A DNA stretch of 64,000 nucleotides from Patescibacteria group bacterium (GCA_013815345.1 JACDGK010000003.1:18897-82896); one strand, 5' to 3'; shown: positions 47,439 through 52,148, counted from the first letter of the stretch. Numbers and translations are program-made. Notes: generated from the letters alone by a model not told the origin.

Positions 47439-50400
47439 CTTTCTACGTGTCTACGACCAAAAAACCAACCAAAAAACGGAGCGGATAGGCCGTATGGCCT
47501 CCTGCGCGCAAGCGCCTGAACCGCCCCGCAAGGGGTGTTTTTAATTCGGAGAATTAAAAACCCCAAGGAAGGCGTTTTGCAAAATAAACATTGGAAGAGT
47601 AGACACTGACCTTTGACAGACGAATACGCATAAAAAGGTAAATCAACGCCATGATGTGAAAGCATCGTGGTAATGAAATTGCATAGTTATATGAAAATAT
47701 AACTTGCACATGAAGGTAACACTTTATGTGCTCACAAAAATTGTGGTGTTCAGGTTTCCGCACAGGAAACGTGAAGGGTATACGGTGGATGCCTTGGCTT
47801 ATGCATGCGATGAAGGACGTGACTAATCTGCGAAATTCTTCGGGGAGGCGATTTGTAGCCTTTGATCCGGAGGTGTCCGAATGGGGAAACCCGATCTGTA
47901 TAGATCATCTTTCTGTTTATCAGAAAGAAGCGAACCTGGGGAAGTGAAACATCTCAGTACCCAGAGGAATAGAAAACAACAGCGAGTTGTTTTCTGTCTG
48001 CTCGATGCTTCGAGCGGATGGAAAACAACTCTCGTGATTCCCTAAGTAGCGGCGAGCGAAACGGGAGAAGCCCAAACCAGATACTTCGGTATGTGGGGTT
48101 GTAAGACGGAAGTACCGTACTTGTACGGCAAGAGTTACAAAAGATATATATAACGGAAGCTGCTGGGAAGCAGCGCCCTAGAGGGTAATGGCCCCGTACG
48201 TGAAATGTAGATCTCTCTTGTGCTTCTGTTCTTGAGTAGTTCGAGACATGAATAGCTCGGATGAATCTGCCGGAACTAACCGGTAAGGCTAAATACTGCA
48301 TAAGACCGATAGTGAACTAGTACCGTGAGGGAAAGGTGAAAAGAACCCCGAAAGGGGAGTGAAATAGAACTGAAACCGTATACTTACAAAGGGTTATGGG
48401 GGGCGTTCGCGTCCTTTATAGCGTGCCTATTGAAGAATGAGCCTGCGAGTGTATGTATGTTGCTTGGCTAAGTCCGTTATGGGACGAAGCCCTAGGGAAA
48501 CCGAGTGTTAATAGCGCGTCCGTATCATACATACGACCCGAAGCCGGGTGAGCTTACCATGGACAGGTTGAAGTTTGTCGAAAGACAGATGGAGGACCGA
48601 ACCCGTACGTCGTACAACGCGTTGGGATGATCTGTGGTAAGGAGTGAAAAGCTAATCGAACCCGGTAATAGCTGGTTCTCTCTGAAACATCTTTTGGGAT
48701 GGCGTCGTGTGATCCTTCCGGGGGTAGAGCACTGGAAGGGGTAAACAGGGAGAAATCTCGTTACTCCTATCAACCTCCGAATACCGGAAATTACAACACG
48801 GCAGTTAGACCATGGGGGCGAAGCTCCATTGGTCAAAAGGGGAAGAGCCCGGATCGTCAGTTAAGGCCCCTAAATCGACACTGAGTACAACTTAAGGAAG
48901 TGAGGATCCTTCGACAATGAGGATGTTGGCTTAGAAGCAGCCATCATTTAAAGATAGCGTAACAGCTCACTCATCGAGGGTCCTTGCGCCGAAGATAATC
49001 GGGGTTAAGTGTCGTGCCGAAGCTACGGGTTTGTGCACTTCATAGAGGAGGATGATTTTTTCATATCTTCTGTGAAGTGCACAAGCGGTAAGAGAGCGTT
49101 CCGTTCTGCGATGAAGGAAAAGGGGTGACCCATTCTGGAGCGTACGGAAGTGAGAATGCAGGTACAAGTAACCACAATGCGGGTGAGAACCCCGCACGTC
49201 GAAAGATCAAGGTTTCCTCAGCTATGGTGATCAACTGAGGGTTAGTCGGGCCTAAGGGGATGGTGAAAACCGCACCCGATGGACACAGGGTTAATATTCC
49301 CTGACCGTTTGCACATGCGATGGAGAGACGGACTGCTGTATGTAGTGCCCATTATTGGATTTGGGTCAGTGCCGTGAGGGGGTGTCTTAGGTAAATCCGG
49401 GACGCATATACTCCGAGCGGAAAAGCAACATCCTTCTACGGAGGGGTGGAGACTACGGAGCGCGGTTCCAAGAAAATCTTCTAAGCTTCAGTGTGTAACG
49501 TCCGTACCGCAAACCGACACAGGTGATCAGCTCGAGTAGAGTAAGACGAACGAGTGAGAGGTCCTCAAGGAACTCGGCAAAATAGCGGCCGTAAGTTAGC
49601 GATAAGGCCTGCCCCTCTCCGGAGGGGCCGCAGCGAAAGATTTTCTGGCAACTGTTTACCAAAAACACAGCTCCCTGCGAACTCGTAAGAGGATGTATAG
49701 GGGGTGACGCCTGACCAATGCCGGAAGGTCAAGCAGGGACGGTACATTGATTTCGATTGATGTGCTAGGCCCTATAAGCCCCGGTGAATGTCGGCGATAA
49801 CTATAATCGTCCTAAGGTTCTGGGTTGGAGCAATCCTGCCCAGAACGGATTGGGACGATTATAGGAGACCGTAAACAGCTCTGAGAAGAGTACGTCATTA
49901 ATAGCTACCTCTTTCTTTGGAAACAAAGATTGAATCCGCGACTCATATGAGAGGCCATACGTCGTGCACCATGCAAATGGTTGAAGATATGGTCCTTCTT
50001 GGAGGAATAGAAGAGCGTAATTCCTTGTCTGGTAAGTTCAGACGTGCACGAATGGCGTAATGACTGGAAAACTGTCTCGAGGACTCGCTCGGTGAAAATG
50101 CAATACCGGTGAAGATGCCGGTTACCTGTAGTTAGACGAAAAGACCCCAGGAGCTTTACTACAGCTTCGTATTGGGGCTGCGTGGTGCCTGCGTAGAATA
50201 GGTGGGAGGCTTTGAAGCATTCCTTTCGGGGAGTGTGGAGCCGCCAGTGAAATACCACTCTTGCATTGTGCAGTCTCTAACCCTCGTAAGAACTACGAGG
50301 GGACCGTGCGTGGCGGGTAGTTTTGGTGGGGCGCTATCCTCCTAAAAAGTAACGGAGGAGTCTATTAAGGTTGGCTAGGCGCGAATGGAAACCGTGCCGA

Positions 50401-50610
50401 TAGTGTAATGGCAGAAGCCAGCTTAACTGCAAGACGTACATGTCGAGCAGATGCGAAAGCAGAGCATAGTGATCCGATGGTTCGCCTTAGATGCGGCCAG
50501 AGCTCAACGGATAAAAGTTACCCTGGGGATAACAGGCTAGTTCCGCCCAAGCGTCCATAGCGACGGCGGAGTTCGGCACCTCGATGTCGGCTCACCTTAG
50601 CGCGGGGCTG

Positions 50611-51371
50611 GAGAAAACATACCTTCTCTCCTCATTGGAAACGATGAGGTAATTAAACAAGCTCAAAACGGTGAAGGCTGACTTATGCAAGCGACCTTAT
50701 GTTTCGGAGGTCCCAGGTTTAGTGTTAAACTTGATGTATGAGAGCTAACGCCGTGGGAAAGAAGTGTTCTGAAGTAGAGCGAGCATATATAGCTGGATTT
50801 TTGGATGCCGATGGAGCCATTATGGCTCTTATCGAACCGCATTCAGAAAAACAGTATAAGTTTCGAGTTCGCGTTGCGATTAAAATAACGCAACAGGACA
50901 GGAAAGTCTTAGATTGGATACGTACAGTACTTGCGGTTGGAATCGTTCGTGCAAATCGCGCTGGCACTAGTCGCCAGACGTTTGATCTGCACATTCGTGA
51001 TCAAGCGCACGTACAGAAAATTCTGACAAGTCTCTTACCATTTATCCGTGTCAAAAAACGACAAGCAGAAATGGCTCTTGAGATTGTGAATTCAAAAATC
51101 ATCACGTCAGAAGATCTACTCAAAAATGCCCGTATCGCCGACGCTTTGTCGCAGTTGAACGTTCGGTCCAAGAATCGGCGTAAAAACTTTGTGGCAAAGG
51201 TCGAAGAATATCTCTCCCCTAACGACTGAGCACGATTCTTTTGGGAATCGTGCGAGATATGCCCACTGTAGTGGGGTATAACACGGCTTGCACCTAAAAC
51301 TGTAATGGTGACATTACAAACATGGTGATGGAATAGTCTGATACTTGTCGGAAGGCAAGAACAACAAAGAA
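50611..51371 (+). mobile_element. Group I intron 1 in 23S (domain V, near E. coli ~2500) carrying a LAGLIDADG ORF; boundaries +/-6 nt
   Basis: Exon homology stops after ..GTCGGCTCACCTTAGCGCGGGGCT and resumes at ..GAGGTCCCAAGCGTTTGGCTGTTCGCC. ~760 nt lie between them. Confidence 0.6.
50738..51229 (+). CDS. Intron-encoded single-motif LAGLIDADG homing endonuclease (I-CreI-like homodimer type)
   Basis: 163 aa. The motif is YIAGFLDADGAI. It is embedded in 23S intron 1. Confidence 0.8.
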   Translation: MRANAVGKKCSEVERAYIAGFLDADGAIMALIEPHSEKQYKFRVRVAIKITQQDRKVLDWIRTVLAVGIVRANRAGTSRQTFDLHIRDQAHVQKILTSLLPFIRVKKRQAEMALEIVNSKIITSEDLLKNARIADALSQLNVRSKNRRKNFVAKVEEYLSPND

Positions 51372-51434
51372 TTGAGGTCCCAAGCGTTTGGCTGTTCGCC
51401 AATTAAAAAGGTACGCGAGCTGGGTTCAGACCGT

Positions 51435-51780
51435 GTAGGAATAGAGTCGCAGAATTTATTTTGCGGAATCGATTCTTACACCGTCTGAATCCCTTTGAGA
51501 TATCTGTTTATCAGAACTTAATAAAGTGCGAAGTGAATGTCTTTTCGTCTATGAAATTATGATAGAACCAACAACCATCACGGCGATGTGCTACAGGAAT
51601 GTAGTACGTACCATCAACTAATATCGGTGAAACCCTCCCCATTAATTTGGCGGGCAACACCGAGGGAAGCTGAGAAAATCTCGGTACCCGTAGAGACTAC
51701 ACGTTGATCATCCGACCATTTAATTTATTTGAGGATGAAGATATAGTCCGACCCTCCGAGTAATCGAAGTTAACAAAGTG
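51435..51780 (+). mobile_element. Group I intron 2 in 23S (ORF-less, 346 nt, near the A-loop)
   Basis: The 5' exon ends ..GGGTTCAGACCGT (terminal U). The 3' exon resumes CGTGAGACAGGTTGGTCTCCTATC, and the preceding intron nucleotide is G. The E. coli equivalent is the contiguous GAACGU|CGUGAGACAG. Confidence 0.6.
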
Positions 51781-52148
51781 CGTGAGACAGGTTGGTCTCC
51801 TATCTACTACAGGCGTTGATTCTTGAGGAGGGTTGCCCCTAGTACGAGAGGACCGGGGTGAACTGACCTCTGGTCTACCAGCTGTTTTGCCAAAAGCATC
51901 GCTGGGTAGCTATGTCGGGTCGGGATAACTGCTGAAAGCATATAAGCGGGAAGCCCACTCCAAGATTAGGAATCGTTATGAGACACCTTAAAGATTATGA
52001 GGTTGATAGGCTTTAGATGTACGCACAGTAATGTGTTCAGTCGAGAAGTACTAATATGTCCAGTTTTCTGTGCGGAATTCTGCATGGCACAATTTTTGTG
52101 TTCGCAATCCGTTTTATGCGTATTCGTTTTTGTACAAGGTACGCATGT

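Follow-up and report, generated by a model that had tools for sequence, protein, structure and literature searches.

The subject of this analysis is a 64,000-nucleotide stretch of DNA from a Patescibacteria group bacterium (GCA_013815345.1, JACDGK010000003.1:18897-82896), called the window below, which carries on its plus strand a 23S ribosomal RNA (rRNA) gene followed by a 5S rRNA gene (Table 1). The 23S gene contains three inserts, of 195, 760 and 346 nt, located after positions 1931, 2533 and 2593 in the numbering of Escherichia coli (E. coli) and designated here by these sites as L1931, L2533 (intron 1) and L2593 (intron 2), and an open reading frame (ORF) for a LAGLIDADG protein lies within the L2533 insert. 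At a probability of roughly 85%, this is a single 23S gene interrupted by three group I-type introns, one of which bears a homing endonuclease gene. The E. coli numbering was verified against an E. coli 23S copy with A2451 and m5U1939 as anchors.

At the gathering threshold, an Rfam scan of the whole window split the 23S gene into two pieces (47776-50100 and 50146-50527) and reported no group I intron, while a rescan of 50000-52300 with permissive filters gave a single collinear match to the bacterial large-subunit (LSU) rRNA model, from model position 1943 to 2912, with two inserts hidden inside it. In the Rfam LSU alignment of 50000-52062 the first of these, counted as 762 nt, is flanked by ..GGGGCUGGAG and GGUCCCAAG.., and the second, counted as 352 nt against 6 in the model, by ..CAGACCGU and ACAGGUUGG. 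An earlier sequence-only reading of the window had stated that collinearity with bacterial 23S rRNA breaks twice in domain V, which this alignment bears out. It had also counted two introns in the gene, and both domain V inserts stand, but the total does not, as a third insert in domain IV had been overlooked. After the two domain V inserts are accounted for, the exonic remainder of the gene is still ~280 nt over the E. coli length, and pairwise and local Rfam alignments place the L1931 insert between ..UCCUAAGGU and AGCGUAAUUCC... All three junctions are spanned by the Rfam LSU model alignment. Pairwise MAFFT alignment of the whole gene with that of E. coli misplaces the large introns and was used solely for numbering and for small inserts near the 5′ end.

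The boundaries of the L2533 insert come from alleles that lack it. Clade-specific exon flanks were scanned in metagenome contigs with a free gap of 0-14 nt allowed, which yielded 120 loci, and in 90 of them the gap is GAGAA, the uninterrupted allele being GCGCGGGGCUG-GAGAA-GGUCCCAAGCG and the intron-less sequence at helix 91 (H91) reading ..CUGGAGAAGGUCCC... One locus (L083) has flanks identical to those of the window with the insert missing. The junctions in the window are ..CUGGAGA/AAACAU...AAUUG/AGGUCCC.. (slashes mark splice sites), from which the ligated exons would read ..CUGGAGA/AGGUCCC.., and the limits 50615-51374 were chosen because theirs is the sole placement that gives back GGAGAA with an insert ending in G. 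The terminal G51374, which precedes AGGUCCC, is kept in every related locus inspected, and the last nucleotide of the 5′ exon is A50614 and not U. The limits given by the sequence-only reading, 50611-51371, are therefore 3-4 nt off, and its location of the insert near E. coli 2500 also needs correction, since the A2451-anchored numbering puts it at 2533/2534 in the terminal loop of H91. A 5′ splice site after U2528 (GGGGCU/), which would fit the rule that the upstream exon ends in U, was ruled out by the intron-less alleles, which hold GGAGAA. A literature search on an intron site at L2530-L2534 returned unrelated papers only, and a site near 2533 is unnamed in the text of a survey of CPR (Candidate Phyla Radiation) 23S genes (Tsurumaki et al., 2024, PMC11270868), although L2533 could be one of the unnumbered frequent sites 23IS9-11 of that survey.

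The sequence-only reading had proposed that it would be refuted if the Rfam group I models did not score, and on the L2533 insert the model does not score; the structure was therefore tested directly, and refutation on the basis of Rfam turns out to be too strict for this insert. In an alignment of 57 distinct L2533 inserts (A2), all column pairs were scanned for conserved, covarying stacks, from which a P1-P9 model with a P3/P7 pseudoknot was assembled by hand. This model has 95.6% of its 4432 cells paired across the 57 homologues, compared with 40-45% in controls whose 3′ partners were shifted by 1-3 columns, and compensatory changes occur in 56 of its 78 pairs. Its covariation score is 0.553 versus 0.19 for shuffled data, and none of 500 shuffles matches any of the observed measures. 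The strands follow one another in the order P3(5′), P7(5′), P3(3′), P7(3′), that of the group I pseudoknot, and in P1 the exon covaries with the guide (A2 columns 29/89, GC in 47 and AU in 10). The folding around the junctions that the sequence-only reading had called for yields a P1-P9 core with the P3/P7 pseudoknot in the L2533 insert and P1 and P4-P9 in the L2593 insert. Supported by the covarying core, the terminal G and the restoration of the exon, the L2533 insert is on this model a genuine group I intron that is invisible to the Rfam model, a miss that may be explained by the ORF within P4-P6 together with the P7.1 and P7.2 hairpins. The topology of these two hairpins points to subgroup IA (IA-like), and the segments UAACGACU (J6/7-P7) and AUAGUCUG (P7′) presumably resemble their counterparts in the phage T4 td intron.

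Two candidate elements of intron 1 were rejected. The first, GGUCCCAGG in L5, had been considered as the guide or as a mimic of the H91 3′ strand pairing with exon GGGGCU; it shows no covariation with the exon variants GGAGCU, GGGACU and GGCGCU (loci L007, L018, L027, L057 and L065), and as a guide it would leave ~100 nt in L1. The other, GACUUAUG (50680s), considered as the 5′ strand of P7, is conserved in the closest relatives only.

For the L2593 insert the limits given by the sequence-only reading, 51435-51780, are exactly right, as intron-less relatives read ACCGU/CGUGAGACAG across the junction and close relatives have the uninterrupted ..ACCGUCGUGAGACAG... The upstream exon ends in U51434 and the insert in G51780, as had been claimed, and the site follows U2593, in agreement with its earlier description as I-CreI-class. 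The Chlamydomonas Cr.LSU intron is inserted at L2593, and I-CreI has its target there. An insert occurs at this position in 98 of the fetched loci. The Rfam check proposed for this insert succeeded in so far as Intron_gpI matches it end to end (51509-51770, full model 1-253, 47.3 bits, E 2.4e-10), and failed in so far as the score lies under the cut-off. Independently of Rfam, RNAalifold recovered P1 and P4-P9 from 20 relatives, with compensatory changes in 30 of 60 predicted pairs. P3 is not predictable by RNAalifold because it crosses P7; inspection by eye shows AUCAAC/GUUGAU in some relatives and CUGAC/GUCAG in others. Exon and guide also change together, exon 2586 C/U tracking guide G/A in 43 + 8 of 51 L2593 introns and exon 2589 tracking its own guide partner in the same 51 (by eye). 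The P7.1 and P7.2 hairpins are missing from intron 2. On this modelled structure, the L2593 insert is accepted as a group I intron.

The L1931 insert is likewise bounded by an exon-terminal U (U49818) and its own terminal G (G50013), which is kept in the related loci inspected, and about 17 relatives have homologues of 190-260 nt at the same site. From 14 of these homologues, RNAalifold predicted a long P1 with covariation between exon and guide (columns 9/67, 10/66 and 13/63), together with P7, P8 and P9, and P3-P6 were partly resolved. The insert is probably a compact group I intron, as judged from this predicted fold. In both ORF-less introns a short internal segment can pair with the 3′ exon, namely CACG 51579-51582 with CGUG 51781-51784 in intron 2 and GCU 49904-49906 with AGC 50014-50016 in the L1931 insert, both predicted by RNAalifold. 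These pairings may represent an unconventional P10; the segments are conserved, distant from the guide and invariant, and hence have no covariation in their support.

The ORF in intron 1 encodes, as the sequence-only reading had described, a single-motif LAGLIDADG protein of 163 residues, which scores 31.4 bits against Pfam LAGLIDADG_1 (PF00961; cut-off 23.1). By phmmer against PDB, its residues 13-160 match I-MsoI (E 1.7e-14) and I-CreI (~1e-13), with E-values of 1e-14 to 1e-12 overall, and D25, Q52 and K106, which align with the catalytic Asp, Gln47 and Lys98 of I-CreI, are invariant or near-invariant among 24 homologues. By these sequence comparisons the protein belongs to the I-CreI/I-MsoI family and is probably active, and it would be homodimeric because it has a single domain. 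The partly palindromic H91 DNA (GGGnC...GnCCC) would suit such a homodimer. Its identity to the endonucleases of CPR L2593 introns is 26-32%, and the window endonuclease is therefore placed on its own branch within the I-CreI family. The reading frame starts in L5 with its AUG and runs through P5′, J5/4, P4′ and the two strands of P6, with the bulk of it forming the L6 loop, and its UGA stop (51227-29) overlaps the 5′ strand of P7. Because the ORF runs through core helices, the codons of its N-terminal NAVGK and C-terminal SPND-stop are conserved at the nucleotide level. Intron cores with overlapping ORFs are already known (PMC3984707). An identical protein is recorded in independent NCBI and JGI sources, and the identical sequence occurs on contig JAITZQ012077882.1 of assembly GCA_020064125.1. 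No sigma-70-like site was found upstream of the ORF in the window, where the count equals the shuffled expectation, and a TATAAT-like box precedes the endonuclease AUG in many relatives. A segment upstream of this AUG, GCAGGUCCCAGGUAUAAU at 50700-50737, is kept in most of the loci L001-L080 and contains a TATAAT-like box; its GGUCCC is a copy of the H91 3′ strand and shows no covariation with the exon.

Table 1. Features of the interrupted 23S rRNA gene and its surroundings (window coordinates; "with" joins the two strands of a helix).
Feature	Position	Strand	Description	Basis
Interrupted 23S rRNA gene	~47776-52062	+	Ends are Rfam match limits; true termini a few nt further out	Rfam LSU_rRNA_bacteria, 1538.7 + 741 bits, model positions 15-2912
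5S rRNA gene	52158-52263	+	Downstream of 23S	Rfam, 79.5 bits
L1931 insert, probable group I intron	49819-50013	+	195 nt, ORF-less, after E. coli U1931, domain IV	198-nt insert in LSU alignment
L1931 P1	49802-49814 with 49851-49863	+	Exon with guide, intron hairpin between	RNAalifold columns 4-16/60-72, 20-31/43-54
L1931 P7	49953-57 with 49990-94	+	GGCCA with UGGUC	RNAalifold
L1931 P8	49968-72 with 49977-81	+	GCAA loop	RNAalifold
L1931 J8/7 and S-like element	49983-95	+	GAAGAUAUGGUCC	Sequence
L1931 P9	49995-98 with 50010-13	+		RNAalifold
Intron 1 (L2533), modelled IA-like group I	50615-51374	+	760 nt, H91 loop after E. coli 2533	Intron-less alleles, covariation
Intron 1 P1	50610-15 with 50624-29	+	GGAGA/A with guide UUCUCU	98.5% paired
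Intron 1 possible P10	50621-24 with 51375-78	+	ACCU with 3′ exon AGGU	Sequence complementarity
Intron 1 P2 hairpin	50630-37 with 50642-49	+	GAAA tetraloop	7/8 pairs compensatory
Intron 1 P3	50658-63 with 51285-90	+	CAAGCU with GGCUUG, spanning the ORF; J3/4 CAAA after 5′ strand	100% paired, 4/6 compensatory
Intron 1 P4	50668-73 with 50749-54	+		P4-P5 jointly 97% paired, 6/10 compensatory
Intron 1 P5	50676-79 with 50743-46	+	J4/5 and J5/4 both AA; variable L5 contains AUG	Jointly with P4
Intron 1 P6	50755-70 with 51205-18	+	14 bp; 5′ strand GGGA 50755-58 + 50761-70	12/14 compensatory
Intron 1 J6/7	51219-23	+	CUAAC	AACGACUGA invariant, 57 sequences
Intron 1 P7	51224-28 with 51334-38	+	GACUG with UAGUC	Invariant
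Intron 1 P7.1 hairpin	51230-53	+	Length-variable alignment	6/6 compensatory; 78% paired
Intron 1 P7.2 hairpin	51256-80	+		3/5 compensatory
Intron 1 P8	51291-94 with 51324-27	+	Inner hairpin 51300-07 with 51312-19, GUGA loop	Covariation model
Intron 1 J8/7		+	AUGGAA, after P8 and before P7 3′ strand	Covariation model
Intron 1 P9 hairpin	51344-49 with 51354-59	+	GNRA loop, then 3′ tail to G51374	Covariation model
Putative homing endonuclease ORF	50738-51229	+	163 aa, single LAGLIDADG domain	YIAGFLDADGAI
Intron 2 (L2593), modelled group I	51435-51780	+	346 nt, ORF-less, after E. coli U2593	Intron_gpI match, relatives
Intron 2 P1	51422-38 with 51476-93	+	Exon GGGUUCAGACCGU and first 4 intron nt	RNAalifold columns 1-17/101-117
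Intron 2 P3	51613-18 with 51703-08	+		By eye; Rfam alignment
Intron 2 P4	51624-29 with 51658-63	+		Rfam alignment, RNAalifold
Intron 2 P5	51633-35 with 51652-54	+		Rfam alignment, RNAalifold
Intron 2 P6	51664-66 with 51687-89	+		Rfam alignment, RNAalifold
Intron 2 P7	51695-99 with 51744-48	+	GACUA with UAGUC	Rfam alignment, RNAalifold
Intron 2 P8	51709-13 with 51733-37	+		Rfam alignment, RNAalifold
Intron 2 P9	51754-59 with 51764-69	+	GUAA loop; terminal G51780	Rfam alignment, RNAalifold

The absence of the U.G wobble from the 5′ splice site is the sole departure of these introns from textbook expectation. In the window, intron 1 has A50614-U50625 as its splice-site pair, intron 2 has U51434-A51480 and the L1931 insert has U49818-A49845. 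Among 71 relatives of intron 1 with P1 correctly located, the pair is A-U in 54, C-G in 15 and U.G in 2 (in A2, column 32/86, AU 42, CG 8 and UG 2), and it follows the rRNA nucleotide at 2533, such that loci L043 and L057, which have U2533, carry the canonical U.G. In the L2593 family the U at -1 is opposite A in 45 cases and G in 6, and in the L1931 family the pair is U-A in 11 and U.G in 2 of 14. The wobble is described as conserved in, and needed for activity by, the Tetrahymena ribozyme, where it is read by the A-rich J4/5 loop and where C-G in its place raises P1 undocking ~80-fold (PMC1891724). The A-rich J4/5 is retained in the CPR introns described here. Tentatively, and with the odds somewhat against it, we suggest that the L1931, L2533 and L2593 families habitually use Watson-Crick pairs (A-U, C-G or U-A) at the 5′ splice site in place of the near-universal U.G, covarying with the exon in L2533, and that L2533 in addition represents a widespread site and lineage, invisible to Rfam, which has so far been filed as 'non-intron'. 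If true, the Watson-Crick habit would imply a relaxed or different recognition of the 5′ splice site or obligatory help from a protein, and the systematic absence of the wobble is one point of possible interest to ribozyme specialists.

Several observations weigh against the view that all three inserts are group I introns. The canonical U.G is missing at all three 5′ splice sites in the window. The Rfam score of intron 2 is 2.7 bits short of the gathering score of 50, no Intron_gpI match to the L1931 insert is found at E<=10 when 49700-50120 is searched, and intron 1 likewise gives none at E<=10, including when its 3′ half alone (51195-51390) is used. The homologous inserts of L001, L004, L018 and L043 have no group I match at the gathering score. 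P7 of intron 1 is invariant and so has no covariation in its support, being neither backed nor contradicted, and the tentative assignment of intron 1 to subgroup IA draws on topology and a presumed likeness to td.

The absence of the wobble bears most directly on how the inserts are spliced. Because the splice-site pair is Watson-Crick and not U.G, they might be group I-derived elements that no longer self-splice and depend on a protein, either a LAGLIDADG maturase or a host factor. The Watson-Crick majority in all three families fits this, as do the ~80-fold faster P1 undocking of the C-G-substituted Tetrahymena ribozyme (PMC1891724) and the maturase activity that is possible in homing endonucleases (PMC11270868). 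With two of the three introns ORF-less, however, a maturase encoded in cis cannot be the general answer. In other respects the cores are complete, with strong purifying as well as compensatory selection acting on them, and the covariation of the splice-site pair with the exon means that the pairing itself is selected. Dependence on protein is a serious alternative, one that concerns mechanism and not identity, but we consider it unlikely. That the inserts are not introns at all is a different matter. The L2533 insert could be imagined as an expansion segment retained in the rRNA, or as an intervening sequence (IVS) cut out by RNase III without ligation to leave a fragmented 23S rRNA, since an extension from the terminal loop of H91 is sterically conceivable, Rfam does not recognise the insert and IVS-type inserts may exist in CPR (PMC11270868). 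However, its two ends show no mutual pairing, the 5′ end being engaged in P1 with an internal guide whose sequence covaries with the exon. The insert further possesses the P3/P7 pseudoknot, P4-P6 with an A-rich J4/5, J8/7 plus the element AUAGUC, and a terminal G that does not vary; it also carries a homing endonuclease gene, and nearly identical exons occur both with and without it. The classical bacterial IVS sites are helices 9, 25 and 45, and H91 is not among them. None of the three inserts has the features of an RNase III-type IVS, as they lie in the H71 region (L1931), the H91 loop and at L2593, their ends do not pair with one another, the 5′ end is taken up in P1 with an internal guide and the 3′ end is left as a tail without a partner strand. 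This explanation is very improbable.

Archaeal bulge-helix-bulge introns were rejected by inspection, with no dedicated search for that motif, as the 5′ sites lie inside a continuous P1 and the 3′ sites after an unpaired tail or P9. It is scarcely credible that the inserts are chimeras or misassemblies, as might be feared of a contig from a metagenome-type assembly, since all three insert types recur at identical nucleotide positions across dozens of assemblies made independently and the exact endonuclease protein is found in both the NCBI and the JGI records.

With the inserts read as three group I introns, the following course is inferred for their splicing, whether self-catalysed or helped by a protein, and for the action of the endonuclease in homing. 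All three introns would be transcribed in the pre-23S RNA, where the internal guide of each would pair with its 5′ exon to form P1 while the P3-P9 core folds, and an external guanosine bound in P7 would attack the 5′ splice site, after which the freed exon would attack behind the terminal G. Excision would give back the conserved H91 loop GGAGAA and the strands of the peptidyl-transferase centre. At the DNA level, the homodimeric endonuclease would cut intron-less H91 rDNA (GCGCGGGGCTGGAGAAGGTCCCAAGCG), and repair would copy the intron in.

Group I introns in CPR rRNA genes are a well-documented hallmark, and the case in the window is largely ordinary. The sequence-only reading had called such introns rare among bacteria yet typical of CPR lineages, in agreement with the survey of Tsurumaki et al. 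(2024), in which insertions of at least 100 bp occur in 82% of CPR 23S genes, 45% of these insertions match the Rfam group I model, and LAGLIDADG_1 genes cluster at 1917, 1931, 1952, 2593, 2604 and 2657 (PMC11270868). The survey cites Brown et al. (2015) for the removal of such insertions from transcripts, and itself reports that one CPR enzyme of this type cuts its own site as a homodimer (PMC11270868). The introns of the survey (example, I-ShaI) are like those in the window in host group, location in the 3′ half of the 23S gene, patchy site-specific spread and single-domain LAGLIDADG_1 proteins of about 160-180 residues, and L1931 and L2593, both occupied in the window, are among its frequent sites. 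It also lists 31 LAGLIDADG_1 ORFs in CPR 23S insertions that have no group I match, and its Rfam-based scheme would file the L2533 insert as 'LAGLIDADG_1 ORF, no hit to group I intron' (PMC11270868), but a full core emerges here from covariation. Of the insertions filed as 'LAGLIDADG ORF without a group I hit', one abundant class or more would then consist of genuine group I introns, and the window adds to the picture of intron-rich CPR rRNA genes a worked example with nucleotide-exact boundaries and covariation-supported structures. Its 23S gene is ~1.3 kb longer than the predicted mature RNA (195 + 760 + 346 nt), and rRNA-based binning, primer design and gene calling would mishandle such a gene, with the endonuclease ORF called as an ordinary gene.

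Other known systems share parts of this arrangement. The chloroplast Cr.LSU intron of Chlamydomonas reinhardtii (I-CreI) and the Monomastix intron of I-MsoI occupy the same position as intron 2 (ACGU/CGUGAGACAG), and their enzymes are of the same homodimeric family as the window endonuclease. Unlike Cr.LSU, the L2593 intron of the window is ORF-less and the I-CreI-like gene is in a different intron, at L2533. The I-CreI ORF of Cr.LSU lies mostly in the P6 loop, like the window ORF, but the latter extends through P5′, P4′ and P6 into P7. Introns of subgroup IA, such as that of phage T4 td, share with intron 1 two hairpins between P7 and P3′ and a compact core, whereas intron 1 differs in its host gene, its site, its far greater overlap of ORF and core, its splice-site pair, which is A-U, C-G or U.G according to the exon nucleotide instead of U.G, and its escape from Rfam detection. 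The 23S introns of bacteria outside CPR (Thermotoga, Simkania, Coxiella and cyanobacteria) also use conserved sites in domains IV and V, with L1931 shared, and some have LAGLIDADG genes as in the window (PMC3984707, PMC1995217). Those cases are sporadic and single, in contrast to the three introns in one gene, each of a lineage-wide family, seen here.

The endonuclease has 416 homologues. In a search with one genome per species, which gave 80 loci, the H91 site is shared, with the gene located between the GAUGUCGGCUC motif and the A loop in 75 of the 80, and the distribution is patchy across many CPR genomes. Five loci (L002, L006, L012, L058 and L080) have an extra insert of ~300-800 nt just after GAUGUCGGCUC (~E. 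coli 2510) and before the H91 intron, which is assigned to another intron family because of a shared GCUAAUAACGGUGRAG motif. A close relative (L004, 2487-2736) has a further group I intron upstream of the 2500 region, with an Rfam score of 72.7 bits, above gathering, and the intron complement therefore varies between near relatives. The H91 intron and its endonuclease also occur in metagenome-assembled genomes labelled Gammaproteobacteria, Pseudomonadales, Caldithrix, Omnitrophota, Planctomycetia and Chlamydiae (L011, L013, L027, L032, L034, L042, L045, L051 and L069), which points to mis-binning of CPR rRNA contigs or to spread by horizontal transfer.

The host is a member of the ultra-small Patescibacteria (CPR), of the Parcubacteria/Paceibacterota type, as the RodA protein encoded at 53110-54312 is a 100% match to an NCBI 'Patescibacteria group bacterium' protein with relatives labelled Paceibacterota or Parcubacteria. 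The rRNA genes are unlinked and in an unusual order, with the 23S-5S pair first and the 16S gene (63146-64000) ~10.9 kb downstream on the same strand, and protein genes such as that for RodA lie between the 5S and 16S genes. The Rfam scan showed no large insert in the initial 855 nt of 16S sequence (from 63146). The 23S gene itself has smaller extras relative to E. coli, placed approximately by MAFFT: 53 and 54 nt in domain I (47986-48038 and 48096-48149, after ~E. coli 233 and 290), and 16 + 21 nt (49029-49044 and 49066-49086) at ~E. coli 1166-1187 around helix 45, which is one of the classical sites for an IVS.

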